Below, piece after piece: positions 10,523-57,796 of a stretch of 64,000 bases of DNA. Location: NCBI GenBank assembly GCA_964453925.1, contig CAYVPV010000001.1:46524-110523 (forward strand), in the 5' to 3' direction. The notes under the pieces were generated by a model. It saw only the letters and a program-made list of their open reading frames with translations, was not told where the DNA came from and ran no database searches. The position numbers were made by a program, and so were the translations under genes. Numbering within the stretch: the first letter of the stretch is position 1; the number at the start of each line of letters is the position of its first letter. This DNA comes from an uncultured Muribaculaceae bacterium. GTDB taxonomy: Bacteria > Bacillota_I > Bacilli_A > RF39 > UBA660.

Positions 10523-10531
10523 AAGGTCTTT

Positions 10532-12561: not shown

Positions 12562-12566
12562 GTAGT

Positions 12567-13193: not shown

Positions 13194-13226
13194 TTTTAAG
13201 CTTTTTATTTTTAGGAGTGATTTTAT

Positions 13227-14516
13227 ATGAAAGTGGCAATATATACATTAGGATGTAAAGTAAATACATATGAAAGTGAGTATGCTGCAAAAGAATTTAT
13301 AAAAAAAGGATATGAACTAACTGATTTTTCAGATGATTCTGCTGATGTATACTTAATAAATACGTGCACTGTAACAAACACCAGTGATCAAAAATCAAGG
13401 AAAATGATTAGACAAGCTAGAAAGAAAAATAAAAATGCAGTTGTAGTTGCAATGGGATGTTTTACTCAAATTAGAAACAACGATAATGCAATAATGGATT
13501 TTGTTGACGTTGTAATTGGAAATACTGATAAAAGTAAAATAGTTGACTTAGTAGAACAGTATAGAAAAGATAGAGAAAAGATTCTTAATATAAAAGACAT
13601 GGCTAATGAGGATTTTGATGATATGGAAATAAGTTATTTTAATACCAGAACAAGAGCACTTGTTAAAATAGAAGATGGTTGTGAGAATTTTTGCTCATAT
13701 TGCATTATTCCATATGTAAGGGGAAAAGTAAGAAGTAAAAAACCAGAAAAAGTTTTAGAAGAAGTAAATTCGTTAGTTAAAAATGGATATAAAGAAATTG
13801 TATTAACGGGTATTCATACTGGCCATTATGGTTTTGATTTGGAAAACTTTGACTTTAGTGATTTGTTAACTGAATTAGAAAAAATAAAGGGTTTAGAACG
13901 TATTAGAATTTCATCTATAGAAATAGTTGAATTAAATGATAAATTTTTAAGTGTATTAAAAAAATCAAAGAAAATAGTAAATCATATACATATTCCACTT
14001 CAGGCTGGTAGTGACCATATTTTAAGATTAATGAATAGAAGATATGATAAGAAGTATTATCTAGACAGAATAAAAAAAATAAAAGAAATAAGACCTAATA
14101 TGGCAATAACTACAGATATAATAGTTGGTTTTCCCAACGAAACAGAAGAAGATTTTTCTGAAACAATGGATTTTGCTCGAGAAATAGATTTTGCCGGAGG
14201 CCACGTATTTCCATTTTCCTCTAGAAATGGAACCCCCGCTGCTAAGATGAGTGGACAATTAACTAAGCAGGAAAAACACGTAAGATGTAAGAAGTTAATA
14301 GCATTATTTGAAGAATTAGAAGAAAAATATTATAAAAAACATATTGGAAAAGAAGTTATAGTAATTCCTGAGACTTATTCTGAAGGATATTTAACTGGAC
14401 ACACTGATAACTATTTAAAAGTTAAATTTAGCGGTTGTGAAGAATTAATTGGTAAGACTATAAAAATACATATAGAAGAATATAAAGATAAAATTTTAAT
14501 AGGAAAAACACTATAA
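13227..14516 (+). CDS. mtaB: tRNA t6A37 methylthiotransferase MtaB (radical SAM)
   Basis: MKVAIYTLGCKVNTYESE N-terminus, CENFCSYCIIPYVRG radical-SAM motif and a C-terminal TRAM-like domain. Confidence 0.85.
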   Translation: MKVAIYTLGCKVNTYESEYAAKEFIKKGYELTDFSDDSADVYLINTCTVTNTSDQKSRKMIRQARKKNKNAVVVAMGCFTQIRNNDNAIMDFVDVVIGNTDKSKIVDLVEQYRKDREKILNIKDMANEDFDDMEISYFNTRTRALVKIEDGCENFCSYCIIPYVRGKVRSKKPEKVLEEVNSLVKNGYKEIVLTGIHTGHYGFDLENFDFSDLLTELEKIKGLERIRISSIEIVELNDKFLSVLKKSKKIVNHIHIPLQAGSDHILRLMNRRYDKKYYLDRIKKIKEIRPNMAITTDIIVGFPNETEEDFSETMDFAREIDFAGGHVFPFSSRNGTPAAKMSGQLTKQEKHVRCKKLIALFEELEEKYYKKHIGKEVIVIPETYSEGYLTGHTDNYLKVKFSGCEELIGKTIKIHIEEYKDKILIGKTL

Positions 14517-14541
14517 AATTAATATTTTTATAGTGCTTTTT
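14509..14541 (+). terminator. intrinsic terminator after mtaB
   Basis: 10-bp stem cactataaaa/ttttatagtg followed by cttttt. Confidence 0.6.
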
Positions 14542-14705
14542 ATTTCGACAAAGTTTTTAAAAATAGTTTATATAATAAAGATCCGAAAGAAAGGAAACTA
14601 ATATATGAACTATTTTGATAAAAAAGTATAGTAGGAGAAAAAAGTAAATGCTAGTTAAAATCTATTATTTATGATAAAATCATATTGCAATGTTAGGAGG
14701 TAAAA

Positions 14706-16895
14706 ATGGAAACATATATAAAAGGAACTTTTAAAAGAACTATTTTTTCTTCTAATGATGGATATACAGTTGGGTTAATAAAAATAAAAGATACTGATGA
14801 TCAGGACCTTTTAGAATATAAAGGAAAACAATTTACCTTTACTGGTTTATTCGCCGAATTAAACGTAGATGAAGATTATATTTTCCATGGGAATTTATCT
14901 GATAATCCTAAATATGGGATTCAATATAAAGTTAATAAATATGAGAAGATAATGCCAGAAGATAAAGATGGGTTAATTTTGTTTTTATCAAGTGATATTT
15001 TTCCAGGTGTTGGGGAAAAAACTGCTGAATCTATCATTGATACTTTAGGTGAAAGCTGTTTAAAGGATATAACTAATGATTATGAATGTTTACTTATGGT
15101 TCCTAAAATGACAGAGAAAAAAGCGATGGATATTCATAATAAATTAATTAAGTATAATGAAAGCTATGAAATAGTTATTTATTTAACAAATTTTGGATTT
15201 AACATGAAAGACGCACTTAAAATTTATAATCATTATTTAGAAGATACAATAAGAGTAATAGAAAATAATCCTTATGAATTAATTGATACGATAGATGGTA
15301 TTACCTTCTCTAAAATAGATAGTTTGAGGAATAAAACTAATGTTGAGCTTAATGACGAAAGAAGAATACATGCTTTAATTATTTATGTTATGAAAACAAT
15401 TTGCTTTACCACCGGGGATACTTATTTAGAATTAGAAACAATTTATAGTGCTGTTAAAAACGTTTATGAAGAAGGTATTAGCGAAGAAAAAATAAACTTT
15501 TATTTAGTAGAACTAAATAGTTTGGGTAAGATAATTATAGAAGACAATAAGTTTATCTTAATTGATCATTATAAAAACGAACATTATGTTGCAACGAGTG
15601 TATATGATTTATCAAATAAAGAAGATACTAAAATAAAGGACATTGATATTAAGATTGAAAGGCTAGAAAATTTTTTTGACATTTTTTATAATGATGAACA
15701 AAAACGTGCAATAAAACAAGCTTTGATTAAAAACTTTTCTATTATAACAGGTGGCCCCGGAACCGGGAAAACCACTATTATAAAAGGTATAACTCAATTA
15801 TACAAAATGACTTCAGGATATTCATTTGAAAAATTAAAAGAACGCATGATACTTTTAGCACCAACGGGAAGAGCTGCAAAAAGAATGAGTGAATCATGCG
15901 AATACCCAGCATCAACTATTCATAGATATTTAAAATGGAATAAAGAAACTGGTGAATTTCAATACAACGAACGTAATAAAGTTAGTGCAGAATTTATAAT
16001 TGTTGATGAAACAAGTATGATAGATATAGATTTGATGGCAAATTTTTTTAAAGCAATGCCAAAAAATATAAAACTAGTATTCATAGGTGACTATAATCAG
16101 CTAGAAAGTGTTGGCCCAGGAAAGGTTTTAAAAGATTTTATTGAGTCTGAAATGATTAATACAATATTTTTAAAGGAAATATATAGACAAGATCAAAATT
16201 CATTTATAACAGAACTTGCATACGAAGTTAATACTGGTGAATTAACGGAAAGTTTTTTAGAAAAGAAAGATGATTATAATTTTATAAGGTGTGAAAATAG
16301 TGATGTGTTAAAAGCTTGCGCTGACGTTGCAAAAAAAGCGATAGATAAAGGATATGATTTAAAAAACGTACAAGTTTTAGCACCAATGTACAAGGGTATA
16401 AATGGTATAGATAACCTAAATAGAATACTCCAAAAAATATTTAATCCTAAGAATGATTCTAAAAATGAAACGTATGATGCAGATGTTATTTATAGAGAAG
16501 GAGATAAAATACTTCAGTTAGAAAACATGCCTGATGATAACGTGTTTAATGGGGATATAGGTTTTATTGAAAAAATAAGTGGGACCGAAATAACCGTTGA
16601 TTTTGATGGTAACAAGGTTAAATATAAACCTAAAGATTATAAAGCTATTAAACATGGTTATGCTATAAGTGTTCATAAAGCTCAAGGCAGTGAATTTGAA
16701 ATAGTTATAATGCCAGTTATAAAAGATTATAGGCTGATGCTTTACCGAAAACTTGTTTATACTGGAATAACAAGAGCTAAAAGATCTCTTATTTTATTAG
16801 GCAATCCATCTGCTTTTTGTAAGGCTGTTTATAATGAAGGTAACAAAGAAAGAAAAACTAATCTTAAAAAAATATTAATTGATAACATTTTATAG
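14706..16895 (+). CDS. recD2: RecD2-type ATP-dependent DNA helicase (RecD/TraA family)
   Basis: ITGGPGTGKTT Walker A, IIVDETSM, and SVHKAQGSEF near the C-terminus. The 729-aa length is typical. Confidence 0.85.
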   Translation: METYIKGTFKRTIFSSNDGYTVGLIKIKDTDDQDLLEYKGKQFTFTGLFAELNVDEDYIFHGNLSDNPKYGIQYKVNKYEKIMPEDKDGLILFLSSDIFPGVGEKTAESIIDTLGESCLKDITNDYECLLMVPKMTEKKAMDIHNKLIKYNESYEIVIYLTNFGFNMKDALKIYNHYLEDTIRVIENNPYELIDTIDGITFSKIDSLRNKTNVELNDERRIHALIIYVMKTICFTTGDTYLELETIYSAVKNVYEEGISEEKINFYLVELNSLGKIIIEDNKFILIDHYKNEHYVATSVYDLSNKEDTKIKDIDIKIERLENFFDIFYNDEQKRAIKQALIKNFSIITGGPGTGKTTIIKGITQLYKMTSGYSFEKLKERMILLAPTGRAAKRMSESCEYPASTIHRYLKWNKETGEFQYNERNKVSAEFIIVDETSMIDIDLMANFFKAMPKNIKLVFIGDYNQLESVGPGKVLKDFIESEMINTIFLKEIYRQDQNSFITELAYEVNTGELTESFLEKKDDYNFIRCENSDVLKACADVAKKAIDKGYDLKNVQVLAPMYKGINGIDNLNRILQKIFNPKNDSKNETYDADVIYREGDKILQLENMPDDNVFNGDIGFIEKISGTEITVDFDGNKVKYKPKDYKAIKHGYAISVHKAQGSEFEIVIMPVIKDYRLMLYRKLVYTGITRAKRSLILLGNPSAFCKAVYNEGNKERKTNLKKILIDNIL

Positions 16896-16980: not shown

Positions 16981-17145
16981 ATGAAAGCACTAAATAATCT
17001 TGGATGGATGCTTTTAGGTGTTGCTGTAGGTTCTGGTGCATTTTATTGTTATAATGAATGTTCTTGTAATGGTGGCATAAAGCAAACAATAAATAAGGTT
17101 AAGAAAAACGCAAGTAAAAAATTAGAAAATATGATGGAACAATAG
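16981..17145 (+). CDS. small membrane protein (54 aa), not in the ORF track
   Basis: RBS agaaggtga upstream. The sequence is MKALNNLGWMLLGVAVGSGAFYCYNECSCNGGIKQTINKVKKNASKKLENMMEQ. A terminator follows. Confidence 0.45.
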   Translation: MKALNNLGWMLLGVAVGSGAFYCYNECSCNGGIKQTINKVKKNASKKLENMMEQ

Positions 17146-18067: not shown

Positions 18068-20020
18068 ATGAGAAATAAAAAGGGTTTTACGTTGGTGGAA
18101 TTATTAGTTACAATTGCTCTTATGTTATCAATTCTTGGAATAGCAATAGTAAGTTTTATAAACATAAGTAATAGAAAAAAAGAGGAGTCTTGGCAAAAAG
18201 TTAAGGAACAAACTGAACTAGCAGCTGAAGAATATTATAAAATTAACGAGTATTATTTAGAATCTTTAACAACTGAAGGTGGATATGCTAGAATTAGTAT
18301 AGGTAAATTAGTAGAAGAAGATTTTTTAACTAAAACCGTTAATCCAATTAGTGGTAAAGCACTTAATAATTGTGACTATGTTGAAGTTACAAAAAATAAT
18401 TCTGGTTATTCATATAATTATGTAGAAAATAATGATAATTCAGTTTGTAACGTTGGTAATTATGCGATTGTAAGTAAACCAGGTGCTCCTTTAATTTCTG
18501 TTTCCTTGAAGAATGCACCAACTGGAAATGATAGTTATTATATAGGTGATGTAGAAATAAAAGCAACGGTTAGTACCGGTGGAAATGGTCCAATAAATGA
18601 AGTTAAATATTGCTCTACTATAACAGATTCACTTGATTGTGAGAATTATGAAAGCCTAACCGTTAAATCTGGGAAAGAAAATGATTATTATGGTACAAAT
18701 TATTCTATAAAAAATAATTCATCCGGTGTTGATGGTAATAAAGTAACTACAATTTTTATTGCGACAAATGTATCAGGTAATACCGTTTCTGGTGAAGTTA
18801 CATATAAAAAGGACACGGAAAATCCTGTTTGTAGCACGAATAACGGAACAACAACTTGGGCTAAAGATAAAAGAACGATAACACAGAATTGCACTGATAA
18901 GACAAGCGGATGTACGAAAGATAATTATAGTGTTACTTTTACAAATACAACTACAGTTGGTACGATAAAAATAGAAGATAAAGCTGGAAATACAAATAAT
19001 TGTAGTGCTAATGTTTATGTTGATGCAGATGCACCTACTTGCGGTACTGCGGCTGGTCAAGGTTCCACATCTAATTGGACTAATGGTACTAGAAATATAA
19101 CTCAAACTTGTTCGGATGGAAATGGTTCTGGTTGTAAATCTGTTACTCAATCATTTACTAATGAAGCAACAACTGGTACTATAACCGTAAAAGATAATGT
19201 AGGGCATACAAAAAAATGTACAGTAAATATATATATTGATAAAACAAAACCTTCATGCACGGTTGCTTTCAAGGGTACTTCTGGAAAAAATGGTTGGTTC
19301 ATTAAAAATAATGTTACAGTTAATTTAAGTACTTCCGATACGGGTAGTTCTGTTGCTAATAGTGGCGTTGGTTCATATGGTTTAACCACTTCTTCATCTA
19401 CTAGTTATAACAATAAAACAAGCGGAACTCAGTCTTCCGAAACCGCAGGCACTAAGTGGTATGGTTATGTTAAAGATAAGGCCGGTAATATACAAAGCTG
19501 TAATAAAACGGTTAAATTAGAAAAAGAAGTTACTATGAGTTTTAATTCGGAAAAAACCAATACTGTAAAATCTTATAATCCAGGTGGAAGTAGTCATGGT
19601 AAAGCGGTTTTTGATACTAGTAAAGGTGCGTGCGACTTTGGTAATTGCACTAATATAAAATGTAAAACAGATTCTACAAAATCAACAACGTGCTCTAAAA
19701 CATACTTTGCAAGATCTTGCATGTACGTAAATACTTATGATAGATATTTTTATGTTACTTCTGCTTCTTCTGGTACAAATAAAATAGTTAAGGTTGATGG
19801 TAGCACAAGTGATTCAGGAATGAAAAGAGTAACTACTTTAAGCAGATATGGTTGTAAAACATCTAGTAATTATTATTTTAAAACGTGTGGTAGTAGTTCT
19901 GGTGAAAGGGTTAATTTTACAGCTCATGAATATCAATATACTTCTCCAGCAGGAATAACTAGTAATAAAATAAGACTTTATGTTGAGTATACAGCAGATT
20001 GTGGTTATAAATCATATTAA
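18068..20020 (+). CDS. giant modular type IV pilin-like protein (class III signal peptide, pilin domain, Cys-rich Ig/HYR-like repeats)
   Basis: MRNKKG|FTLVELLV prepilin motif with Glu5. Repeated ~70-aa modules end in DTENPVC, DADAPTC and DKTKPSC, with D-x-AGN-like motifs (EDKAGNTNNC, KDKAGNIQSC). Confidence 0.75.
   Translation: MRNKKGFTLVELLVTIALMLSILGIAIVSFINISNRKKEESWQKVKEQTELAAEEYYKINEYYLESLTTEGGYARISIGKLVEEDFLTKTVNPISGKALNNCDYVEVTKNNSGYSYNYVENNDNSVCNVGNYAIVSKPGAPLISVSLKNAPTGNDSYYIGDVEIKATVSTGGNGPINEVKYCSTITDSLDCENYESLTVKSGKENDYYGTNYSIKNNSSGVDGNKVTTIFIATNVSGNTVSGEVTYKKDTENPVCSTNNGTTTWAKDKRTITQNCTDKTSGCTKDNYSVTFTNTTTVGTIKIEDKAGNTNNCSANVYVDADAPTCGTAAGQGSTSNWTNGTRNITQTCSDGNGSGCKSVTQSFTNEATTGTITVKDNVGHTKKCTVNIYIDKTKPSCTVAFKGTSGKNGWFIKNNVTVNLSTSDTGSSVANSGVGSYGLTTSSSTSYNNKTSGTQSSETAGTKWYGYVKDKAGNIQSCNKTVKLEKEVTMSFNSEKTNTVKSYNPGGSSHGKAVFDTSKGACDFGNCTNIKCKTDSTKSTTCSKTYFARSCMYVNTYDRYFYVTSASSGTNKIVKVDGSTSDSGMKRVTTLSRYGCKTSSNYYFKTCGSSSGERVNFTAHEYQYTSPAGITSNKIRLYVEYTADCGYKSY
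18134..18186 (+). repeat. 53-bp block identical to 20223-20275 (paralog 5' region)
   Basis: cttggaatagcaatagtaagttttataaacataagtaatagaaaaaaagagga is identical in both pilin genes. Flanking codons differ at synonymous sites. Confidence 0.85.
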
Positions 20021-20153
20021 TGCAGTGCATATATAAAATGTTACACCTTTTTGTACTGCTTTTTATTTACATAATTTATCATTAATAGGATAATATAGAG
20101 TTGAAAATAAAAAGTATATATGTTAATATTATTTTAGAATAAAGGAGCACATT

Positions 20154-22322
20154 ATGAGAAAAAAACAAAGTGGATTTACACTAATAGAATTATTAGTGAC
20201 TATAGCATTGATGCTATCTATACTTGGAATAGCAATAGTAAGTTTTATAAACATAAGTAATAGAAAAAAAGAGGAAGCGTGGAACCAGATAAAAGAACAA
20301 ATTGAAACTGCCGCAATAGAATATTTTAATTCCAACGAATATATGTTTGAAGGTTTAGGAGATGTTTCGGATGGAATCTATGGAAAAATATCTATCGGTA
20401 CTTTAGTTGAAAATGATTATATCAGTATAGTTATCAATCCGGTAACTGGTGAAGCGATTCCTAAATGCGCTTATGTAGAAATAGATAGATCTGGTAATAA
20501 ATATAGTGCGACATTTGATGAGTCTGTTATTAGTGATGCAACTGAAACAGCTTGCGACAGTAACGATTCAGTTATAGTAAGTCAAGCAAGTGGTCCAGAA
20601 TTCGAATTGGAAGGGGCCTGTCGTTTTAATGATGGAAATGGGAACACAACTGGTAATAATACGAGTGATTGGTGTTACCAGTATGATGTTACTCCAAGAA
20701 TAATTAATTTGAAAGGTAATATAGACGATGCGACAGTTGGTTACTGTGTTAGTAATGAGCCTATGTGCAATAATTTTAATGATTTTCAAAGTTTATATCC
20801 GACTGGAAGTGAAGATGAGATAAGAGGATATTTAGACGATGTTGAAGGAGAAGCCAAATATATAACAGCGGCTATTAATAATGGTAATGGTACTAGTTTA
20901 AGATCTAGTAAAATATATAATATTGATAGGACTGCTCCAAGTGGAAATATAGCTATTAATTCATCAAACGAAGATTATAATGTATATAATCCTAATATAA
21001 AGTTGCTTGCCGCAGACTCTGCCAGTGGAATTGGTTCCGTTCAATATTTAACTGACGAAGATAGTTATGAAGAATACTTTGATGGAAATCCTGGAATTAA
21101 AGATTGGTCTAAAACTATTGCAAGTGTTGATGTGAGCGGTGAAGAAAAACAAAACGGCACAACAGTTGTAAAATCAATTATTGTTAAAGATGTTGTTGGC
21201 AATTCTAGTAATGTAAATAGTAACGAATATAAGGTATATAGTGAATGTGGTGAAACTATTGCTGGAGACTCTAATACAACAACTGGTAGCTGTGATTGTG
21301 AAACAAAGCAACGTGCAATAACAACAACATCAAATTTAACGGATAAGTACACTGGAAAATCATGCGGTAAAAAAACCTCTACTAGTCAAGAGGCATGTAC
21401 ACCAACAGGTTGTACTGCAACGTGCCCAACATTTACTTATTCGGGAACTACTAATAACGGGTATTATGTTGGTTCTAGTGTTAGCATAAGAATTACACCT
21501 AATAGTTCTACTGATACTTGGGAGTGGTTTTCAAACGATGTTAAAACTGGTAATTATGTATCTTGGGGAACAAAAACAGGGACTCAAACAGTTAGCATTA
21601 CTGGCGAAGGAACAAGAAGGTTAAAGGTTATAATAACTAATAGTGCTGGAAATAGTAAGACATGTTATTCTAGTGAAATGAAAATAGACCGAACAGCACC
21701 TAATTGTCCAGCGTTCTCTTACAGCGGAACAAAGGGTGATAATGGATGGTATAGGTCAAGTATATCAATAACAGTTAATCCAACAAGTGATACTGCATCA
21801 TGGCAATGGTATACGAATCAAACAAGTAATGGTTCATGGAAATACTGGAGTAATAACACTGGTAAATTAACCAAATCAATAAGTACAGATGGTAAAAGTT
21901 TAAAAGGTCAAGTAATTGTTTCGGATGCTGCCGGCAATAAAAGAACTTGTACTATAAGTGCTTTTAATATAGATAAAACTGCTCCAACGATGAGTATAAC
22001 TTATGGCCCTAAAAAAGAAAAATGTGGTTCAAAATACTCAATTCGTACTAAATATACCGCTAATGATGCAACTTCTGGATTGTCAGTGGTAAAAGATTAT
22101 TATGGTTATGATTCTTCACTACCAAGTGCTAGTTCGTCATATTGGCGTAACAGAAGTATAACCGCAGGTGCTAGTTCATACTCGCATGATCATAACTGGG
22201 GGCCTACCTGTACTACGATGGGAACACCTGGTTCTGGACGTTGTTATAAATTAAAGTATTATTTAAAAGATAGAGCAGGCAACGTTAGAACTGGTATGAC
22301 AAGTAGTTGTGCAACATATTAA
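20154..22322 (+). CDS. giant modular type IV pilin-like protein, paralog of 18068..20020
   Basis: MRKKQSG|FTLIELLV prepilin motif. The pilin domain is homologous to the upstream gene. Modules end in DRTAPSG, DRTAPNC and DKTAPTM. AGN motifs (NSAGNSKTC, DAAGNKRTC, DRAGNVRTG) are present. Two ~95-aa tandem repeat modules lie at roughly aa 425-615. Confidence 0.75.
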   Translation: MRKKQSGFTLIELLVTIALMLSILGIAIVSFINISNRKKEEAWNQIKEQIETAAIEYFNSNEYMFEGLGDVSDGIYGKISIGTLVENDYISIVINPVTGEAIPKCAYVEIDRSGNKYSATFDESVISDATETACDSNDSVIVSQASGPEFELEGACRFNDGNGNTTGNNTSDWCYQYDVTPRIINLKGNIDDATVGYCVSNEPMCNNFNDFQSLYPTGSEDEIRGYLDDVEGEAKYITAAINNGNGTSLRSSKIYNIDRTAPSGNIAINSSNEDYNVYNPNIKLLAADSASGIGSVQYLTDEDSYEEYFDGNPGIKDWSKTIASVDVSGEEKQNGTTVVKSIIVKDVVGNSSNVNSNEYKVYSECGETIAGDSNTTTGSCDCETKQRAITTTSNLTDKYTGKSCGKKTSTSQEACTPTGCTATCPTFTYSGTTNNGYYVGSSVSIRITPNSSTDTWEWFSNDVKTGNYVSWGTKTGTQTVSITGEGTRRLKVIITNSAGNSKTCYSSEMKIDRTAPNCPAFSYSGTKGDNGWYRSSISITVNPTSDTASWQWYTNQTSNGSWKYWSNNTGKLTKSISTDGKSLKGQVIVSDAAGNKRTCTISAFNIDKTAPTMSITYGPKKEKCGSKYSIRTKYTANDATSGLSVVKDYYGYDSSLPSASSSYWRNRSITAGASSYSHDHNWGPTCTTMGTPGSGRCYKLKYYLKDRAGNVRTGMTSSCATY
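20223..20275 (+). repeat. 53-bp block identical to 18134-18186
   Basis: Read directly by comparing the two gene 5' regions. Confidence 0.85.
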
Positions 22323-22327
22323 AATAA

Positions 22328-22367
22328 AATGTAAAAATATTGATCTATTTTTACATTTTTCTTTTTT
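22328..22367 (+). terminator. intrinsic terminator after the pilin pair
   Basis: 11-bp stem aatgtaaaaat/atttttacatt followed by a T-rich tail. Confidence 0.6.
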
Positions 22368-22409: not shown

Positions 22410-22612
22410 TTTAAATTGTTGATGAAAAATTAGTAAGTAATTATTATTTTAAAGAGAGTTAGCATTTGGTGAAAGCTGATACTTAATGTTACTGAAGCTA
22501 TTTTCGGAGAGTAGTTAACAGCTACCGGTTTAAAACCCGTTATTTAATTAAGAATAAAATAGGATGGTACCACGGCATAATCGTTCCTAGCGATAGCCTT
22601 GGTGCCTCTTTT
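22410..22612 (+). promoter_or_regulatory. T-box riboswitch leader, probable Ala specifier (GAA GCU A at 22494-22500)
   Basis: AGAGAG box, ggtgaaag distal motif, T-box sequence aataggatggtaccacgg (22558-22575), and a terminator ggtaccacgg...ccttggtgcc plus a T-run. Confidence 0.75.
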
Positions 22613-22631
22613 TAATAGAAGGAGGATAATT

Positions 22632-23186
22632 ATGGAATTAAAACAAAGAAATCCAAAGATATTTATTGTCTCTGGTAAAGCGAACTCAGGAAAGGACACT
22701 ACTTGCGATCTTATAAATAACCTTATTAGGTTAAAAGAGTTAACAAGTGTAAACTTACAATTTTCTTCATACATCAAAATGTACGCTAAAGTTATTTCTG
22801 GTTGGAATGGTGAGGAAAATACGAAACCTAGAAGCTTACTTCAGGAAATTGGAACCAGTATTATTAGGGATAAAATAGATAACGAATTCTTTATCAAAAG
22901 AATAATAGGAGATATACAGGTTTACTCATATTATTGTGATGCTATTACAATAAGTGACGCAAGGTTACCTGAAGAAATAGACTCTATATATGAAAATTTT
23001 GATAACGTAATTAGAATAAACATAGAAAGACCTAATTTTGATAATAATTTAAATAATAGAGAAAAGATGCATCGTACTGAAATAGGATTAGATGGTTATA
23101 ATAATTATGATTATGTAATAATAAATGATGGAACCATCGAAGATTTAAACAAAAAAATAGAAAAATTAATAGATGAGGTGTTATAA
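22632..23186 (+). CDS. deoxynucleotide monophosphate kinase-like P-loop protein (T4 gp1-like family)
   Basis: RBS aggagg upstream. IFIVSGKANSGKDTTCDLI resembles T4 gp1 IFLSGVKRSGKDTTADFI. The C-terminal IINDGTIEDLNKKI resembles ITNDGSLEELFSKI (recalled from memory). Confidence 0.55.
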   Translation: MELKQRNPKIFIVSGKANSGKDTTCDLINNLIRLKELTSVNLQFSSYIKMYAKVISGWNGEENTKPRSLLQEIGTSIIRDKIDNEFFIKRIIGDIQVYSYYCDAITISDARLPEEIDSIYENFDNVIRINIERPNFDNNLNNREKMHRTEIGLDGYNNYDYVIINDGTIEDLNKKIEKLIDEVL

Positions 23187-25871
23187 ATGAAACAATTAAC
23201 AAGTACTGAGATAAGAAAGATGTTTTTGGACTTTTTTGAAAGTAAAGGACATTTAGTCGTTCCATCAGCATCACTAGTGCCGGATAATGATCCATCACTT
23301 TTATGGATTAATGCAGGAGTTGCACCACTTAAAAAATACTTTGATGGAAGAGAAGTACCTCCTAAAAGAAGACTTACTAATGCTCAAAAATGCATTCGTA
23401 CCAATGATATAGAAGCAGTTGGTGATACTTATCATCATACTTTTTTTGAAATGCTTGGTAATTTTTCTATAGGCGATTATTTTAGGGAAGAAGCGCTTTC
23501 TTATGCTTGGGAGTTACTTACTAGTCCAGATTGGTTTGACATTGATAAAGAAAAGTTATATGTAACGGTTTATCCAGATGATAAAGATACGTTTAATACT
23601 TGGGTTTCTTTAGGATTAGATAAATCACATATCATTGCTTGTGAAGGTAACTTTTGGGATATAGGTCCAGGACCATGCGGCCCTGATTCTGAAATCTTTT
23701 ATGATAGAGGAGAAGAATATGATAAAAGAGGCCCAGAGTTAATTAAAGATGAAATAGATAATGACAGGTATATTGAGATATGGAACAACGTATTTAGTCA
23801 GTTTAATCACGTAGAAGGATTAGATAGAAAAGATTTTCCAGAACTACCTCATAAAAACATTGATACTGGTATGGGGCTTGAAAGATTAGTTTGTACACTT
23901 CAAAATTGTAAAACAAACTATGATACCGATCTATTTATGCCAATAATAAGAAAAGTAGAGGAAATGTCAGGTGTAAAATACACTGATCAAAAAGAAATTA
24001 GATCTATTGCAGATCACATTAGAACGCTTACTTTTTCATTATCTGATGGAGCAACTTTTTCTAACGAAGGAAGAGGATACGTTTTAAGAAGAATATTAAG
24101 GCGCGCATCTCGTTTTGGAAGAAACTTAGGAATAAATGAACCATTTATGTATAAATTAACTGATAGTGTTATAGAAATAATGAAAGATGCTTATCCATAT
24201 TTATCAGAACATAAGGAGTTAATAGATAGACAAATAAGAAAAGAAGAAGACGCATTCTTAAAAACTTTATCTTCTGGTGAAAAAAGGTTAGAGGAGCTAG
24301 TAAAAAGTGGTAAAAAAATAACTGGAGAAGATGTATTTAGACTTTATGATACATATGGATTTCCTTATGAGTTAACATGTGAAATATTAGAAGAGCAAAG
24401 TATTAAGATAAATAAAGAAGATTTTGATAAATGCATGGAGCACCAAAGAACAATGGCAAGAGGAGCATCTAAAAAACTATCTGGGATGAATGCTCAAGGC
24501 GATATTGTAAACTTTAAGGAAGAAAGTATTTTTACTGGCTATGAAAAATTAGAAGAAATTGCTAAAGTAACGTTTGTTGGTAATAATGATGGAAACGTAG
24601 ACAACATATACTCAGAAGGCGTTATAATAACTGATAAAACTCCATTTTATGCAACTATGGGCGGTCAATTAGGCGATATTGGCGTAATTACTGCTGATGG
24701 ATTAAAAGCAGAGATTTTAAAAACCGAAAAAGCTCCAAACGGACAAAACCTGCACTATATAAGATTAATTGAAGGTACTATAAAAATTGGTGATGTTGTA
24801 ACTTTATCAGTAGACAAAGAAAACAGATTTACTACTTGTCAAAATCATTCAGCAACGCACTTACTTCAAAAAGCACTTCAAAAAGTATTAGGAGATGAAG
24901 TTCATCAGGCAGGAAGCTTTGTTAATAACGAAACTTTAAGATTTGATTTTAAATACACAGGTAAGATATCTGATGATCAAGTTATAAAAACAGAAGAATT
25001 GGTAAATGAAATGATTGACGCTTGTTTACCTGCTGAAATAAAACAGATGAGTATAGATGAAGCAAAAAAAATGGGTGCTATGGCCTTATTTGGGGAAAAG
25101 TATGGTGATAAAGTTCGCGTTGTTAAATTTGGTGATTCCATTGAACTTTGTGGTGGTACTCACGTAACAAATACTGGTAACATAAGACGTTTTGCAATTA
25201 AATCTATCGAATCTAAAGGGCTTAATGTTTATAGAATTGAAGCTGTTTGCGATACTAACTTAGAAACTGAGATATTTAAGATGATTAAACCATATAATGA
25301 CGAAATGGTACTTTTACTTAAAAAGGCAAAAAGCATAATTAAAGATGCCGATAATAATGGTATAAAACTTTCATTTGATGTAAATATTTCTAACGAGAAA
25401 CCACTTTGCTATAAAGATGTTTTAGAAAATAAAGACGAAGTTTTAATGGTTAGAAAAAAAATAGCTGAATTAGAAAAAAAATACGCAGAAGAATTATCTA
25501 AAAAAGCACTTTCAAAAACTGATGAATATGTAAATGAAAAAATAACTGGTATTTATGGGGATGTCGTTATAAAAACTTTTGAAAATGAGAATATGGATGT
25601 TTTAAAATCACTTGTGGGGGCCATATCATCTAAGTTAGATAACGGTGTTGTATTTGTTGTAAACGTAAAAGAAGACGCAATTAACTTTATAGCAAAAGCA
25701 AGTGATTCATTAAAAGATAAAATAAACGTTGGTTTATTAATTAAGGATGTTGCTAAAATAGCCGAGGGAAATGGTGGTGGATCGTCTTTGTTTGCACAAG
25801 GAGGAGGAACAAACCCTGATAAGTTAGATATGATTTTAACTTATGTTAAATCTAAAATAGTGGAAGAATAA
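23187..25871 (+). CDS. alaS: alanyl-tRNA synthetase
   Basis: FLDFFESKGH, HHTFFEMLGNFS, the editing-domain HSATHLL and CGGTHV motifs, and a C-terminal DHHA1-like GGGG region. Confidence 0.95.
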   Translation: MKQLTSTEIRKMFLDFFESKGHLVVPSASLVPDNDPSLLWINAGVAPLKKYFDGREVPPKRRLTNAQKCIRTNDIEAVGDTYHHTFFEMLGNFSIGDYFREEALSYAWELLTSPDWFDIDKEKLYVTVYPDDKDTFNTWVSLGLDKSHIIACEGNFWDIGPGPCGPDSEIFYDRGEEYDKRGPELIKDEIDNDRYIEIWNNVFSQFNHVEGLDRKDFPELPHKNIDTGMGLERLVCTLQNCKTNYDTDLFMPIIRKVEEMSGVKYTDQKEIRSIADHIRTLTFSLSDGATFSNEGRGYVLRRILRRASRFGRNLGINEPFMYKLTDSVIEIMKDAYPYLSEHKELIDRQIRKEEDAFLKTLSSGEKRLEELVKSGKKITGEDVFRLYDTYGFPYELTCEILEEQSIKINKEDFDKCMEHQRTMARGASKKLSGMNAQGDIVNFKEESIFTGYEKLEEIAKVTFVGNNDGNVDNIYSEGVIITDKTPFYATMGGQLGDIGVITADGLKAEILKTEKAPNGQNLHYIRLIEGTIKIGDVVTLSVDKENRFTTCQNHSATHLLQKALQKVLGDEVHQAGSFVNNETLRFDFKYTGKISDDQVIKTEELVNEMIDACLPAEIKQMSIDEAKKMGAMALFGEKYGDKVRVVKFGDSIELCGGTHVTNTGNIRRFAIKSIESKGLNVYRIEAVCDTNLETEIFKMIKPYNDEMVLLLKKAKSIIKDADNNGIKLSFDVNISNEKPLCYKDVLENKDEVLMVRKKIAELEKKYAEELSKKALSKTDEYVNEKITGIYGDVVIKTFENENMDVLKSLVGAISSKLDNGVVFVVNVKEDAINFIAKASDSLKDKINVGLLIKDVAKIAEGNGGGSSLFAQGGGTNPDKLDMILTYVKSKIVEE

Positions 25872-41811: not shown

Positions 41812-41925
41812 CACCTTTACCTTATTATATGTATTAAATAGAAAAGTTGCTAACCATATTTTTATAAAAATATGGTTTTTTTACCTAAAAAATGTTATTA
41901 TATATAAAGAATAGGAGTGGTTGAT

Positions 41926-42417
41926 ATGCTTAATAATAAAGGTTTCGCTGTTTCTGCGGTTTTATATACTTTATTAATTGCATTCTTGATGTTTTTAGGT
42001 GCAGCACTTGCTATGTTTTCATCATCAAGTAGTCTAATTGGAAAGGCAAACAATGACCTAATAAATGGAAGTGATTTTGATGTTATTCAAGTTAAGACAT
42101 ATGAAAATGGAAAAGAATGTGGTACTAATAAAGATTATATGTGGTATCAAGCTACGGATGGTGTAACCCTTTCTAATACAATAATTCAAATAAAAAATAA
42201 GTATGGTACGAAGTATTGGCCAAGGGATTTTGAAGGAAATGATATTACCGTTGAAATTGATGATACGGTAAAATTAGAATCTGGGGTTATTTCTGGGAAA
42301 ATCAGAGTTGAATATAATGTAAATCCCGAAGTAAATTATGAAAACTATGGGCAACTAACTTTCATAGATGATGATGGGAACAGAGAGGAAGTAATTTTAA
42401 AAGATATTTGTTACTAA
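41926..42417 (+). CDS. minor pilin / pseudopilin-like protein lacking Glu5 (ComGG/PilX-like)
   Basis: RBS aggagtgg upstream. MLNNKG|FAVSAVLYTLLIAFLMFLGAALAMF is a prepilin-like hydrophobic N-terminus without Glu5. Confidence 0.5.
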   Translation: MLNNKGFAVSAVLYTLLIAFLMFLGAALAMFSSSSSLIGKANNDLINGSDFDVIQVKTYENGKECGTNKDYMWYQATDGVTLSNTIIQIKNKYGTKYWPRDFEGNDITVEIDDTVKLESGVISGKIRVEYNVNPEVNYENYGQLTFIDDDGNREEVILKDICY

Positions 42418-52174: not shown

Positions 52175-53989
52175 ATGAATGCATTAGATATAATATTGTT
52201 ACCATTTGTTTTTATTTATAGAGGATTTATATCTGTTATATTGTTGCCTTATTATTTTGTTATAGGTATAGGTAATGTATTTGGTGGAGGTAATAAAAAA
52301 CAAAAAAACACAATACCTGAAATTAAACCTGGCGAAAAGGTAAAGGTTATTAAACAAACCAGGTCAGCTTATAGCACACCAAAAACGCCTCCAAAGGAAA
52401 CTGATCCAACCAAGATTGCCGAAACGAAACAAAAAGATACTTTAAGAAAACAAAAAGATTTTGAAAAACTTGTTGCAAAAGCAAGACAAGAAGAAGCAAA
52501 AAGAGTTAAGGAACAAGAAAGAATTAGAACTGAAAACGAAAAAAGAGAAAAAGAAAAACAAGCTAGATTATTGGAAAAACAAAAACGTGAAGAAGCGCTT
52601 GAAGCAGCTAAAGAAAAAAAAGAAGAAGAGCTAAAAGCAAAGGGTGAACCAGTAACTTTTGCTGATAAACTAAAAGCCTTTTATAAAAAACTTACTTATA
52701 ATAAAAAGGAAGAATTAGAATTAGAGGCAAAAAAGACTGTTTTAGATGAACAATTTAAAGATAAAGATAGCCAAACCTCTAGATTTACCAAACCATTATT
52801 ATTTGAATATACGGCTAGGAATACAAGCGGAGAAATTGAAAAAAGCACGATAGAAGCTTTATCAAGGGTTGATGTTCATTCTTTTTTAGAAGCTGAAGGT
52901 TATGAGGTCTATGAGATAACCGCTGCTAAAACTAAGATGAATATAAAAACTTACCATATGAAAAGGGCTAGATTAATATTTTATCTTTCTCAATTATCAG
53001 CCTATTTAAAATCTGGTATAGCGCTTGCTGACGCAGTTAAAATACTAGATGAACAAGCAAAAAAACTTAACGAAAAGAAAGCTTGGAGAGCGGTTTATTA
53101 TGATTTATCTATGGGCGATGTTTTATCTGTTGCAATGGAAAAAAGAAAAGATACGTTTCCAAGACTATTAATTAACATGATAAAAACTGCTGAAATGACT
53201 GGTAACTTGCCAGAAACATTAGATGATATGGTAGACTATTATTCTGAGTCAGAATCAACTAAAAAACAAATGAAATCAGCAATGATGTATCCAATGATTG
53301 TTACTATATTTGCTGCTGTTGTTGTAACCTTTATTTTAATGTGGGTAGTTCCACAATTTGTTGACATATATGCAGATTTAGGTAGTGATATACCAGGAAT
53401 CACAAAGTTTGTAATTGCGATTAGTGACTTTTTGAAAAATTATTTAATATTTATACTAATAGTGATAATAGTAATTGTCCTTTTATTTATATATTTATTT
53501 AAAAATGTTAAAGCATTTAGAAAGTCAATCCAACAATTTGCAATGCATTTACCTGTTTTTGGTAATATAATTATATATAATGAAGTTACTATTTTTGCTA
53601 AAACATTTGCTAATTTAATAAACCATAATGTGTTTATTACTGATTCAATGGACGTATTAAGTAAAATCACTGAAAATGAAATATATAAAAAACTAATATT
53701 TGATACTGCTAAAAATCTTACTAAAGGTGAAACTATCTCAAAAGCTTTTAAAGATCATTGGGCATTTCCTAATATAGCTTATCAAATGCTTATTACTGGT
53801 GAAAAAACCGGTAGATTAGGTTCTATGATGGAAAGGGTATCAAATTATTACCAGGAACAACACAGAACCATTATTAATCAAATGAAAGCATTAATTGAGC
53901 CAATAATGATTGTTACTTTAGCAGTGTTGGTTGGTGGAATATTACTTGCCGTAATTATTCCGATGTATGGTATGTATGATGCGTTATAG
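52175..53989 (+). CDS. pilC: type IV pilus / T2SS platform protein PilC (GspF family) with a ~190-aa N-terminal extension
   Basis: Two GspF repeats (LSQLSAYLKSGIAL..., FAKTFANLINHNVFI...) and three core TM segments. The N-terminus adds a hydrophobic hairpin plus a Lys/Glu-rich coiled-coil-like stretch. Confidence 0.8.
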   Translation: MNALDIILLPFVFIYRGFISVILLPYYFVIGIGNVFGGGNKKQKNTIPEIKPGEKVKVIKQTRSAYSTPKTPPKETDPTKIAETKQKDTLRKQKDFEKLVAKARQEEAKRVKEQERIRTENEKREKEKQARLLEKQKREEALEAAKEKKEEELKAKGEPVTFADKLKAFYKKLTYNKKEELELEAKKTVLDEQFKDKDSQTSRFTKPLLFEYTARNTSGEIEKSTIEALSRVDVHSFLEAEGYEVYEITAAKTKMNIKTYHMKRARLIFYLSQLSAYLKSGIALADAVKILDEQAKKLNEKKAWRAVYYDLSMGDVLSVAMEKRKDTFPRLLINMIKTAEMTGNLPETLDDMVDYYSESESTKKQMKSAMMYPMIVTIFAAVVVTFILMWVVPQFVDIYADLGSDIPGITKFVIAISDFLKNYLIFILIVIIVIVLLFIYLFKNVKAFRKSIQQFAMHLPVFGNIIIYNEVTIFAKTFANLINHNVFITDSMDVLSKITENEIYKKLIFDTAKNLTKGETISKAFKDHWAFPNIAYQMLITGEKTGRLGSMMERVSNYYQEQHRTIINQMKALIEPIMIVTLAVLVGGILLAVIIPMYGMYDAL

Positions 53990-54001: not shown

Positions 54002-54790
54002 ATGAGTTTAGAAGTCTTTAATGGAATTATGATATTTATAATTGGACTTATATTTGGATCTTTTTATAACGTGGTTGGATATAGATTACCTAATAATATG
54101 TCAATTGCTTTTCCTCCTTCACATTGTACCAATTGTAATCATAAATTAAAGTTTTACGAGCTAATACCTGTTATATCTTATATATTTCTTGGTGGAAAAT
54201 GTAAATCATGTAAAAAAAGTATATCTATTTTCTATCCTTTTTTTGAATTATTAACAGGAGTGTTGTTTTTATTATCTTATTTAGAGTTTGGGCTTAACTT
54301 TAAATTTATAATAGCAATTACTTTTATCTCGATATTAATTATAATTAGCATAAGTGATATTAAATACTATATAATTCCAGATGAAGTTTTAATTGTTGGT
54401 ACAATAATTATTTTGATTGAGTTTATTATCAACGTAATTATTAATGACATAGGCTTCTTCAATGGTATATTAATGCCATTATTAAATGGAGCAGGGGCAT
54501 TTGCGGTATTATATTTATTTAAAGTATTGGGTGATGCTTTGTTTCAAAAAGAAAGTTTAGGTGGTGGGGATATAAAGTTATTATTCTTTGTAGGATTAAC
54601 CATTGGTTTTGATATGTCGATAGTAACAATATTTATTGCTTCTTTTATAGCGCTTCCATTATCAATAATTAGTTTAATAAGATGTAATAATAATGTTTTG
54701 CCTTTCGGACCATATCTATCACTTGCTGCTACTATAATAATGCTTACCAGCTTAAATTTAAATACAATTTTGAATTTTTTTACCAAATAA
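54002..54790 (+). CDS. pilD: prepilin peptidase (A24 family, PilD/ComC)
   Basis: CTNCNHKLKFYELIPVISYIFLGGKCKSCKK zinc-binding motif, catalytic Asp context GGGDIKL, and multiple TM helices. Confidence 0.85.
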   Translation: MSLEVFNGIMIFIIGLIFGSFYNVVGYRLPNNMSIAFPPSHCTNCNHKLKFYELIPVISYIFLGGKCKSCKKSISIFYPFFELLTGVLFLLSYLEFGLNFKFIIAITFISILIIISISDIKYYIIPDEVLIVGTIIILIEFIINVIINDIGFFNGILMPLLNGAGAFAVLYLFKVLGDALFQKESLGGGDIKLLFFVGLTIGFDMSIVTIFIASFIALPLSIISLIRCNNNVLPFGPYLSLAATIIMLTSLNLNTILNFFTK

Positions 54791-55374: not shown

Positions 55375-56682
55375 TTATATATCAATCATTTCCATGTCAT
55401 CTGTTGGAATATTAGGTGTAGATGTAGCGAGATTTTGATTAAAAATATCTTGAATAGGTTGAGTATTTTGATCTTTACCAGTTACTATTTTAACTGACTC
55501 ATCATCAAGTTCAACTAATCTTAAAATTTCTTCTATGGTTGTTATATTTTGCAATACTTTATTTAAACCATCTTGCAGAAGAGTAGTCGTATCACCTTGA
55601 TATACTAGTTTTCTTAATTCTTCTTTTGGTATACCATTTGAAATTGCATCTCTTATTTCTTGTGAAATTACTAATACTTCGTGAATAGCTATTCTTCCTT
55701 TATAACCGCCAACACATTCAGCACAACCTTCAGCGTAAGCAAGCTCGTTGATATCAACGCCCAGATTTGCTTTAATTAATTTTTTTTCGTATTCAATAGC
55801 AGGTCTTTTTTTCATACAATGAGGGCAAATTCTTCTAGCTAATTTTTGTGAAACTATACCATTTAATGAACTTGCAAGCAGGTATGTTTCAACATCCATA
55901 TCAGTTAAACGTTCAATTGTGTTAAGTGCGTTGTTGGTGTGTATTGTTGATAATACTAAGTGACCAGTAATAGATGCTCTAACGGCTATTTTTGCGGTTT
56001 CATCATCACGAATTTCACCTATCATTATTATGTCTGGGTCTTGACGCAAAATAGATCGTAATACTTCTGCAAAGGTAAGACCTATTTCACTATTAACTTG
56101 TATTTGATTTATGCCAGCTATATTCATTTCTACTGGATCTTCAACGGTAACTAAGTTAACTTGTGGTGTATTAAGAATCTGTAATAAAGAATAAACCGTA
56201 GTGGATTTACCTGAACCAGTGGCTCCGGTAACCAAAATTATTCCGTTTGGTTCCTTAATTAATTCCTTCATTTTTTCTAAGTTAGTAGGTGAGAAACCTA
56301 GGCTTTCTAATCCATTTAAAGACGCTGAATAATCCAGAATACGGATAACTATTTTTTCACCTTCGTTGGTAGGAAGTGACGAAACACGCATATCAAGATT
56401 AATATCTTTTATCGTTATTTTTATGGCACCATCTTGGGGTAATCTAGATTCGGTTATATCCATACCAGAGATAATTTTTAATCTTGCTATTAAATTCTTT
56501 TTGATGCTCTCAGGAATTGTTGTATAATCTATTAAAACTCCGTCTATTCGAAATCTTATCTTAATGGTTGTTTCAGTAGGGTCGAAGTGGATATCGCTAG
56601 CGCCAGCTTGTGCTGCTATATATATAATTTCGTTTACTATTTCAGTAATTGGTAATTTAGTAAAATCTATTTGTTTTAACAT
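55375..56682 (-). CDS. pilB: type IV pilus assembly ATPase (GspE/PilB family), short form without the N1 domain
   Basis: GATGSGKST Walker A, IMIGEIRD Walker B and the tetra-Cys motif CPHC...CAEC typical of the assembly ATPases rather than PilT. Confidence 0.85.
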   Translation of the reverse strand: MLKQIDFTKLPITEIVNEIIYIAAQAGASDIHFDPTETTIKIRFRIDGVLIDYTTIPESIKKNLIARLKIISGMDITESRLPQDGAIKITIKDINLDMRVSSLPTNEGEKIVIRILDYSASLNGLESLGFSPTNLEKMKELIKEPNGIILVTGATGSGKSTTVYSLLQILNTPQVNLVTVEDPVEMNIAGINQIQVNSEIGLTFAEVLRSILRQDPDIIMIGEIRDDETAKIAVRASITGHLVLSTIHTNNALNTIERLTDMDVETYLLASSLNGIVSQKLARRICPHCMKKRPAIEYEKKLIKANLGVDINELAYAEGCAECVGGYKGRIAIHEVLVISQEIRDAISNGIPKEELRKLVYQGDTTTLLQDGLNKVLQNITTIEEILRLVELDDESVKIVTGKDQNTQPIQDIFNQNLATSTPNIPTDDMEMIDI

Positions 56683-56805
56683 TCACAATCGCTCCCTTTA
56701 TTATTCTTTTTTACTCTTTAATAATTATATCTTTACTCTAGATTTTATTATGATAATATTATATAATATATTTTAGAAGATATCAATAAAGAAAAGGTGA
56801 TAAAA

Positions 56806-57321
56806 ATGAAAAAGAGTAATAAAGGGTTCTTTTTAGCAGAAACAATCGTTGTAATAGCACTAGTCACAACTGTTATGGCTTTTGTCTATCCAAATGTTAC
56901 TAAATTATATGATAATTATAAAAATAGGACTAAGTTTTATGATCAGACGGAAGATTTATACACTTTAAAAGCTGCTTACAAATATTTAATTAATGAAAAA
57001 GCTGATTTGATTAGTAATCCTACAACAGATACTAACGGTGTGGGATGTAAAAATATATCAAGTCTAAATAACGGAAGAATAACAGATAGTGTATTATCAT
57101 ATTTAAATATTGATGAATTATACATTGTAAGTTATATGGCAAGTCCTTCCTCTGATAATTACAACTTTAATAAGTATCTTAAAAGACTAAAGAAAACTAC
57201 ATATGATAGTGGTTCATACAGATTAATTGGTTTATTTAAAGAAGACGCAGAAGAAAGATATGCCTCTATTAAAATAGAAAACCCTAACCCAGTTAGAGGT
57301 TGTAATTTAGGAGGAAATTAA
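56806..57321 (+). CDS. type IV pilin-like protein
   Basis: RBS aaaggtga upstream. MKKSNKG|FFLAETIVVIALV is a prepilin motif with Glu5. Confidence 0.65.
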   Translation: MKKSNKGFFLAETIVVIALVTTVMAFVYPNVTKLYDNYKNRTKFYDQTEDLYTLKAAYKYLINEKADLISNPTTDTNGVGCKNISSLNNGRITDSVLSYLNIDELYIVSYMASPSSDNYNFNKYLKRLKKTTYDSGSYRLIGLFKEDAEERYASIKIENPNPVRGCNLGGN

Positions 57322-57322
57322 A

Positions 57323-57796
57323 ATGAAAAAATTAAGTAATAAAGGTCTAACTTTAGTAGAACTTATTGTTAGTTTTGCAATAGTGGGCGTTGCTATAATA
57401 TATTTCTTTCAAACTTTGTATACGGTAAAGAACGTATATAATGTTTCCAGGGACGAAACACAAGCTTTTGCAGATAAAAATTATGTATTAAGAATATTAA
57501 ATGCTTATCTTGACGAGTATGACGAGTTACCTGAAAATTTTTGTGCATATTATGATTTAGAATGTCATAATATTGTTAATTCTGGCCTTATTTCTGGAAC
57601 AAATATAAATTTTTATTTGGTAACAATGCTTGATGGTACAGAATTTAATTTTTATAAATACAAAGAAGAGAATGATATTTCAAATGGAACGCCTAGTGAC
57701 ACGGAAGATTACGTTGAAGATGGTATATTAGAAGAAAATAATAGTGATGATATTTACTTTGACGATGATGAAGAATTATTTGAAGAAGACCAATAA
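57323..57796 (+). CDS. type IV pilin-like protein with an acidic C-terminal tail
   Basis: MKKLSNKG|LTLVELIVSFAIV is a prepilin motif with Glu5. The C-terminus reads DDIYFDDDEELFEEDQ. Confidence 0.7.
   Translation: MKKLSNKGLTLVELIVSFAIVGVAIIYFFQTLYTVKNVYNVSRDETQAFADKNYVLRILNAYLDEYDELPENFCAYYDLECHNIVNSGLISGTNINFYLVTMLDGTEFNFYKYKEENDISNGTPSDTEDYVEDGILEENNSDDIYFDDDEELFEEDQ

Follow-up and report, generated by a model that had tools for sequence, protein, structure and literature searches.

We describe here two adjacent genes, A and B, that lie in a 64-kb stretch of DNA from an uncultured gut bacterium (contig CAYVPV010000001.1, positions 46,524 to 110,523; hereafter the window) and encode giant modular prepilins. 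Gene A (18068..20020, + strand) specifies 650 amino acids and gene B (20154..22322, + strand) 722; each was delimited as an open reading frame (ORF) with a ribosome-binding site (RBS), matches two curated prepilin models and was modelled with AlphaFold2. In both proteins a type IV pilin module is followed by a long extension that is predicted to be built of tandem immunoglobulin (Ig)-like domains. We propose that A and B are probably minor modular pilins displayed on a type IV pilus, where they would serve as variable adhesins. A preliminary description of this DNA had already singled out the pair as pilins with Cys-rich repeat modules; much of that view is borne out below, and parts of it need revision.

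The class III signals that had been called textbook in both ORFs are indeed of that kind. In gene A a leader MRNKKG precedes a mature N-terminus FTLVELLV, in gene B a leader MRKKQSG precedes FTLIELLV, and Glu5 is present in both. The Pfam model N_methyl (PF07963, cut-off 21.2 bits) scores 28.8 bits in A and 30.1 bits in B, and TIGR02532 (cut-off 16.3 bits) 23.4 and 23.3 bits, respectively. The ATG of gene A, at 18068, follows a Shine-Dalgarno sequence (AAGGTGGTG-N5-ATG), and that of gene B an RBS of the form AAAGGAG-N7-ATG. The motif G↓F-T-L-x-E is kept near the N-terminus in 195 of the 205 homologues listed for A and B, which argues that the starts are not mis-called, and it is also found in every paralogue examined. 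A longer mechanical ORF for A does open further upstream, at 18032, and one could take the pilin-like N-terminus for a start-codon artefact, in which case A and B would be ordinary Sec-exported Ig-repeat surface proteins. However, the RBS stands before the ATG at 18068 and not before that at 18032, the prepilin motif exceeds the curated cut-offs, and its position is the same across the homologues and paralogues just mentioned; we regard this explanation as very improbable indeed.

The pilin module comprises residues 1-140 of A (18068..18487, + strand) and residues 1-147 of B (20154..20594, + strand), as judged from the AlphaFold2 models and the alignment of the two. The first 148 residues of the two proteins are 51% identical, in agreement with the shared domain of about 140 residues noted before; beyond that point only weak similarity at the level of single modules is found. 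AlphaFold2, run with family alignments (mean predicted local distance difference test score, pLDDT, 86.1 for A and 78.8 for B), predicts for A an alpha1 helix at residues 9-59 followed by a small four-stranded head, and for B a helix at residues 10-60 followed by a small beta sheet with four short strands. Both would therefore have the lollipop fold of a long alpha1 on a small beta head. In the head of A, Cys102 and Cys127 occupy invariant alignment columns. Profile matches of the module in the PDB are confined to the alpha1N segment of type IV (major) pilins. Of the features by which a type IV pilin is recognised, a class III signal, the lollipop fold (here as predicted) and cognate machinery genes (described below) are found for A and B.

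Past the pilin module, the extensions run for about 500-570 residues, all-beta to the C-terminus, and carry AGN and DxxxP motifs. A and B are each predicted to contain four to six further all-beta modules, mostly Cys-rich Ig-like beta-sandwiches. Cys makes up 3.4% of A and 2.8% of B, which amounts to 20-22 cysteines per protein, compared to 1.1% across 35 other proteins of the window. Every boundary and AGN motif quoted in the preliminary description was located, the boundaries being DTENPVC, DADAPTC, DKTKPSC, DRTAPNC and DKTAPTM, and further copies came to light (DRTAPSG and KDVVGN in B, KDNVGHTKKC and NVSGN in A). The combination of DxAGN with DxxxP is an inter-domain signature typical of Big_3- and Big_13-type domains. 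Whether the extensions are also repetitive, as modules of some 70-110 residues had been proposed, was judged by z-scores against shuffled sequences, and the answer differs along the proteins. Kinship is clear between residues 425-515 and 516-610 of B (z = 23.6) and between residues 253-322 and 323-394 of A (z = 14.9), and it extends across the two proteins for A 395-487 and B 516-610 (z = 7.6), A 323-394 and B 516-610 (z = 7.3), and A 253-322 and B 262-364 (z = 6.2). In contrast, the first module of A, the first module of B and the C-terminal 163 residues of A had no detectable sequence kinship to other modules in these shuffle tests.

In A, all on the + strand, module 1 (residues 141-252; 18488..18823), drawn from predicted strands and motifs, ends in NVSGN...DTENP. 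Modules 2 and 3 (residues 253-322 and 323-394; 18824..19249) are the homologous pair of about 70 residues each; either has four Cys together with Dx(A/V)G(N/H)xxxC and DxxxP, and both are modelled with pLDDT of about 90 or above in most 10-residue blocks, one block standing at 76. Module 4 (residues 395-487; 19250..19528) is an Ig-like unit of about 93 residues homologous to modules 3 and 4 of B, and BLASTP aligns it to B 472-599 at 35% identity. The protein closes with a Cys-rich beta head domain (residues 488-650; 19529..20017), delimited by its AlphaFold2 model and by its recurrence in the family, in which 10-residue block means of pLDDT range from 83 to 97 and are mostly 89 or higher. This head has no Pfam match and no PDB sequence match; a PDB profile search returned noise only (zinc fingers, flavodoxin) and a large-database profile search nothing. 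It recurs in about 30 family members of 414-819 residues and is always their last domain. Because it is the last domain on stalks of varying length, we consider it a candidate distal ligand-binding tip, by analogy with known adhesins.

In B, likewise on the + strand, modules 1 and 2 (residues 148-261 and 262-364; 20595..21245) are beta-sandwiches by predicted strands and motifs, and module 2 carries DxxSG as well as the KDVVGN motif. They are followed by a Cys-rich insert (residues 365-424; 21246..21425) for which AlphaFold2 predicts three long strands and which we describe as a degenerate module resembling the thrombospondin type 1 repeat (TSP1). The insert itself matches none of PF00090, PF19028 and PF19030, and its CSxxCGxG core is degenerate (GSCDCET); it aligns, however, with a segment that exceeds Pfam TSP1 cut-offs in two relatives, P0125 and P0129 (TSP1_ADAMTS in P0125: 30.8 against a cut-off of 23.8). 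Modules 3 and 4 (residues 425-515 and 516-610; 21426..21983) are homologous Ig-like units of about 92 residues. Terminal module 5 (residues 611-722; 21984..22319), defined by C-terminus comparison and predicted strands, ends in KDRAGNVRTGMTSSCATY, and a related module closes the relatives P0008, P0009, P0012, P0020 and P0035. As an observation on the wider family, TSP1 repeats above Pfam cut-offs occur inside giant pilins in 11 of 32 members of B's family, in P0125 and P0129 at residues of about 406-458.

The fold of the extensions was assessed by comparing the models with known structures and by profile searches. Foldseek against the PDB matches the extensions of A and B to strings of Ig/FN3-type beta-sandwiches with probability 1.0. 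Bacterial matches include the Ig repeats of the grappling-hook protein GhpA (Aureispira), tandem repeats of RTX adhesins (6xi1 and 6xi3) and SiiE (TM-score on target 0.43), and a search of a viral library returned phage Ig/FN3 strings. The likeness to SiiE, RTX adhesins and GhpA is one of fold, at 8-18% identity. At the sequence level, the A2 family profile reaches the BIg domains of SiiE with E = 0.0016, the match lying in the region of A modules 2 and 3. Neither A nor B exceeds the cut-off of any Pfam Ig model. Big_13 matches B weakly at residues 536-607 (E = 0.019, 15.8 bits against a cut-off of 27) and does not match A, and a hidden Markov model search for OmpL47 gave a weak match at B residues 281-308. 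Two relatives do exceed Ig cut-offs, P0013 for Big_13 (27.2 against 27) and P0038 for Big_3_2 (47.8 against 23.3). The preliminary description had named Ig-like or HYR-type domains, and it is the former that stands: HYR (PF02494) has no match in A or B even at E <= 1 and remains sub-threshold in the 5 of 34 relatives in which it appears (best E = 0.0012; P0013 18.0 bits against a cut-off of 21.7). The extensions are, as modelled, strings of tandem Ig-like beta-sandwich modules whose sequences have weak ties to Big_13, Big_3_2 and SiiE-type domains.

The same fusion of a pilin N-terminus to a long extension is widespread. Searches at E <= 0.001 returned 395 homologues for A and 186 for B; the 205 distinct homologues listed between them have lengths of 405-1035 residues. 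With a profile of the pilin module only, 214 representative clusters (50% identity) were recovered at E <= 1e-30, and about 90% of the top 150 of them are 400-1000 residues in length. We looked among these matches for a stand-alone short version of the module and rejected the candidates, since the short database matches appear cut off or, in two cases, chimeric. Given that nearly all matches are long and the short ones appear incomplete or chimeric, the pilin module is essentially always fused to a long extension. A profile scan of genome contigs with the module added distant pilins, at 36% identity or less among the matches listed, from metagenome-assembled genomes (MAGs) that include gut, rumen and goat-colon samples. 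Those related contigs for which a source is stated come from human-gut metagenomes. Clustered at 90% identity, the RpoD of the window groups with that of Candidatus Aphodocola excrementigallinarum, a chicken-gut MAG placed in Bacilli incertae sedis. The family as a whole is without specific annotation or experimental study.

The position of A and B on the chromosome had been described as an insertion into otherwise conserved synteny, between recD2 and an hdeD-like gene on one side and the T-box of alaS on the other. The neighbours are confirmed, recD2 through an 84%-identical orthologue and the DUF308/HdeD-like gene directly; on the alaS side an ORF resembling deoxynucleotide monophosphate kinase (DNMK) intervenes as well. 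The insertion is not a one-off event. In the related contigs with both flanks visible (L082/L083, L084/L085 and L087), recD2 is followed by a 54-residue ORF, DUF308, two to three giant pilins, the DNMK-like ORF, alaS and mltG. L001 agrees with this as far as it goes, the contig breaking off after a single giant pilin, just as another ORF begins. The slot is at the same time highly variable. Between related genomes RecD2 is 73-84% identical and the other flanking genes mostly 59-91% (alaS 54-69%), whereas identity is only 44-63% in the pilin modules at the slot, and the extensions align only locally, in short stretches of 24-47%. Entire modules occur in one relative and are missing from another. 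The interval from DUF308 to DNMK/alaS is a conserved but hypervariable giant-pilin locus. The family is not tied to it, since a 777-residue member with the same pilin module sits in another slot, between proS and dnaG, in L086 (10001-12334).

A search for DNA repeats between A and B found only a 5' stretch of 196 nt that is 75% identical, and no tandem or long identical repeats, so there is no sign in these genes of recent gene conversion or of a phase-variation switch. A recombination boundary at the locus was considered as well, alaS being oddly divergent (54%); yet mltG, ruvX and greA, beyond alaS, match the genes on the upstream side in their degree of conservation, and therefore no clean boundary is seen.

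A cognate pilus machinery, which would assemble A and B into a filament, is encoded in the same window. A PilC/GspF-type platform protein of 604 residues (52175..53989, + strand; Pfam T2SSF, E = 4e-50), the presumed assembly partner, is followed by an A24 prepilin peptidase (54002..54790, + strand; A24_N_bact, E = 1e-34; Peptidase_A24, E = 6e-15), which presumably cuts both prepilins behind the Gly of the leader, and by a PilB/GspE-type assembly ATPase of 434-435 residues (55375..56682, - strand; Pfam T2SSE, E = 5e-129). Next to the ATPase lie two small pilin genes (56797..57796, + strand), found by motif scan, with products of 174 residues (KG↓FFLAE) and 157 residues (KG↓LTLVE); N_methyl matches only the second, and the pair follows the ATPase gene in L086 too. 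We consider the two small pilins candidate filament partners of A and B. A further pilin-like ORF, recognised from its sequence (41917..42417, + strand; KG↓FAVSAVLYTLL), lacks Glu5 and has no Pfam or NCBIfam match; it lies upstream of the valS T-box, and upstream of valS also in L086, and may possibly be a tip or initiator subunit.

A Com pilus was considered as the identity of this machinery. The ATPase scores 488 bits with the GspE and PilB models and 279 bits, below cut-off, with ComGA. The platform protein matches the GspF and PilC models below their equivalog cut-offs. All ComG models (ComGA, ComGB, ComGC-GG) remain under their cut-offs and the GspE/PilB and GspF/PilC models score higher, so we do not call it a Com pilus. 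Two peculiarities of the set deserve mention: the platform protein has a Lys/Glu-rich N-terminal extension of about 200 residues, and the ATPase is N-terminally short and encoded in the opposite orientation to the rest. Elsewhere, family members and machinery genes are found in closer company. In L086 some 4 kb separate the 777-residue member from the same machinery downstream of it (platform 86% and ATPase 84% identical to those of the window), and in the more distant lineage of L088 three giant pilins adjoin a T2SSE ATPase gene. The L088 genes (5072-16268) encode proteins of 1042, 1029 and 931 residues whose first 85 or so residues are near-identical and whose remainder differs; an ISL3 transposase lies between two of them and the nearby T2SSE ATPase gene encodes 751 residues. 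The arrangement looks like a cassette-style array.

Taken together, we favour a model in which A and B are minor pilins with stalks. The A24 peptidase would cut A behind Gly6 and B behind Gly7 and so remove the leader of 6-7 residues. The ATPase and the platform protein would then move the hydrophobic alpha1 out of the membrane to a growing type IV filament, in which Glu5 would form its customary contact between subunits. As the extensions are bulky, A and B would most likely be low-abundance subunits in or near a tip complex with the small pilins, in the manner of PilB/PilC of Streptococcus sanguinis or CofB of enterotoxigenic Escherichia coli. Five modules, if extended, would span roughly 15-20 nm, and the Ig-like stalk could hold a distal binding domain off the filament, as in an adhesin. 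With two to three paralogues at each locus, and whole modules being gained, lost or replaced between related genomes, the pilins may offer a choice of binding specificities, or shifting ones, in the gut. That the extensions are far less conserved than RecD2 (24-47% versus 73-84%) argues for accessory, variable adhesins, as does the occurrence of the same terminal head on stalks of differing length. Several points nevertheless weigh against this model. The machinery set lies about 30 kb downstream of A and B, and neither PilT nor PilMNO genes were seen within the 64-kb window. The N-termini of the two small pilins are less canonical than those of A and B, and a conventional major pilin is not evident in the 64 kb, so that A and B might themselves be main subunits. 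Both proteins keep Glu5, which argues that neither is the terminal cap subunit. Ligand binding by the distal domains is argued from analogy, and processing and incorporation of A and B into a filament from genes and predictions.

The latitude just noted leads to one alternative, namely that the filament is mainly built of A and/or B, with alpha1 forming the core and the Ig-like stalks standing out radially in a thick "bottle-brush" pilus. The N-termini of A and B are the most major-pilin-like in the window, both with Glu5, compared with the G↓FFLAE and G↓LTLVE of the small pilins, only one of which exceeds the N_methyl cut-off. The pilin module is essentially never a stand-alone short pilin, each of the two genes has a strong RBS with promoter-like and terminator-like signals, and a location in the filament body has been held possible given a flexible linker (Raynaud et al., PMC8179133). 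If this were true, the choice of paralogue together with module shuffling would re-coat the whole fibre. On the other hand, a normal major pilin may lie outside the visible 64 kb, and the two to three divergent paralogues, hypervariable in their extensions, look more like accessory adhesins than like a backbone. No type IV filament of 70-kDa subunits is known; to our knowledge neither a major pilin of 65-75 kDa nor a "bristled" type IV filament has been described so far. We hold the bottle-brush arrangement to be unlikely.

The prepilin signal could also serve only for export and anchoring, so that A and B, once cleaved, would remain in the membrane as wall-spanning surface adhesins or binding proteins, or would form a very short pseudopilus. 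The archaeal bindosome, in which sugar-binding proteins carry class III signals, offers an analogue. Both genes lie among housekeeping genes and outside the machinery cluster, their products have no LPXTG or other wall anchor in their sequence, which would make alpha1 the sole tether, and the predicted length of the stalk (four to five modules) may come close to the thickness of a Gram-positive wall. On the other side, the near-universal Glu5 and the long pilin-type alpha1 point to selection for polymerisation, family members adjoin ATPase, platform and peptidase genes in L086 and L088, and the characterised bacterial modular pilins are filament subunits (PMC8179133, PMC9934059, PMC6048534). 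We give this possibility little weight too, and stay with stalked minor pilins as the probable role of A and B.

Some further features of the surroundings may be recorded. Downstream of gene B, a hairpin followed by a T-run (22321..22364, + strand; inverted repeat I2, 19-nt arms, 89% complementary) is a probable terminator. The window has a GC content of about 25-35%, and promoter and terminator consensus sequences proved no more frequent in its AT-rich DNA than after shuffling. Ahead of alaS, a T-box (22410-22591) scores 89.9 bits (E = 5e-20), just under the Rfam cut-off of 93 and so beyond the reach of a default scan. The DNMK-like ORF (22599-23186) lies between the T-box and alaS and abuts the latter, a pairing kept in L082, L084 and L087. 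The AlaS of the window (23187-25871) is 54% identical to those of L082 and L084 and 69% to that of L087, and the group seemingly has two divergent types of alaS, of 894-898 and 907 residues. The 54-residue ORF between recD2 and DUF308 (16981-17145; MKALNNLGWMLLGVAVGSGAFYCYNEC...) has the same place and length in L001, L082, L084 and L087 and is probably a real small membrane protein. Two other ORFs, at 1582-2841 (419 residues) and 9380-10522 (380 residues), have no Pfam match at E <= 0.001.

The family described here adds a sizeable and unannotated group of modular pilins, of about 214 clusters at 50% identity and mostly from gut metagenomes, and supports the suggestion that signature-based surveys undercount such proteins. 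It also offers a natural example of a constant pilin "handle" joined to swappable Ig-like stalk modules and distal heads, in tandem arrays at a conserved slot. This pattern points to diversifying selection on the adhesion targets of uncultured, small-genome gut Bacilli of the Candidatus Aphodocola type. Among the modules themselves, the C-terminal head of A, of about 160 residues, and the bacterial TSP1-like modules in the relatives of B are of structural and binding interest.

How, then, do A and B compare with known systems? The preliminary description did not recognise their architecture as a known one. It is not unprecedented, since multi-domain modular pilins have been catalogued and the pilin module of A and B heads some 214 clusters. 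The survey of InterPro by Raynaud et al. (2021, PMC8179133) counts upwards of 1,200 modular pilins, spread over 264 architectures; FN3, He_PIG and a case of 12 repeats are among them, and many more without domain signatures are predicted there. A and B have the architecture defined there, a pilin module up to residue 140-147 or so joined to Ig-like, TSP1-like and other modules, and they share with the catalogued multi-domain proteins the plan of an IPR012902 motif followed by repeated beta-sandwich-type domains. Their own family would have escaped the survey because the extensions carry no Pfam/InterPro signature in most members.

Tip display of bulky modular pilins has precedent (PMC8179133, PMC9934059, PMC6048534). 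Closest in setting are PilB (vWA) and PilC (lectin) of Streptococcus sanguinis (PMC8179133, PMC9934059), which like A and B belong to a monoderm host, combine a class III signal with grafted modules and are encoded side by side, and for which tip display for adhesion has been proposed. They differ, however, in having one globular module each, whereas A and B have four to six modules with an Ig-like stalk (plus head), and there is no detectable sequence similarity past alpha1N. Unlike in the S. sanguinis pair, some 30 kb separate A and B from the machinery, and their slot is hypervariable and flanked by housekeeping genes. The minor pilins CofB of enterotoxigenic Escherichia coli and TcpB of Vibrio cholerae (PMC6048534), of about 520 residues, join a pilin to beta-rich domains and a distal H-type lectin, and CofB is located at the tip of the pilus, whose assembly it starts. 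The likeness to A and B is architectural only: CofB is a homotrimer of a diderm type IVb system with two extra domains, A and B have a string of Ig-like repeats, and neither CofB nor TcpB was matched by sequence in PDB searches with A and B or appeared among the top 50 Foldseek matches. The best structural matches of the extensions, SiiE, RTX adhesins and GhpA, whose stalks presumably serve as spacers, are giants of thousands of residues exported by type I or type IX secretion and, unlike A and B, are not pilins.

For the exchange of specificities, the nearest parallel is the Kil Tad pilus of Myxococcus (PMC12075869), whose minor-pilin tips are interchangeable: alternative sets of these "Tips", with variable end domains, change the target range. 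That system is a type IVc (Tad) pilus of a diderm predator with multi-protein tips, whereas A and B would be single stalked pilins. Viewed against these systems, A and B are uncharacterised modular pilins and an extension of known biology, not a new principle; what is noteworthy in their family is the long Ig-like stalk, the distal head without database relatives and the hypervariable tandem slot.

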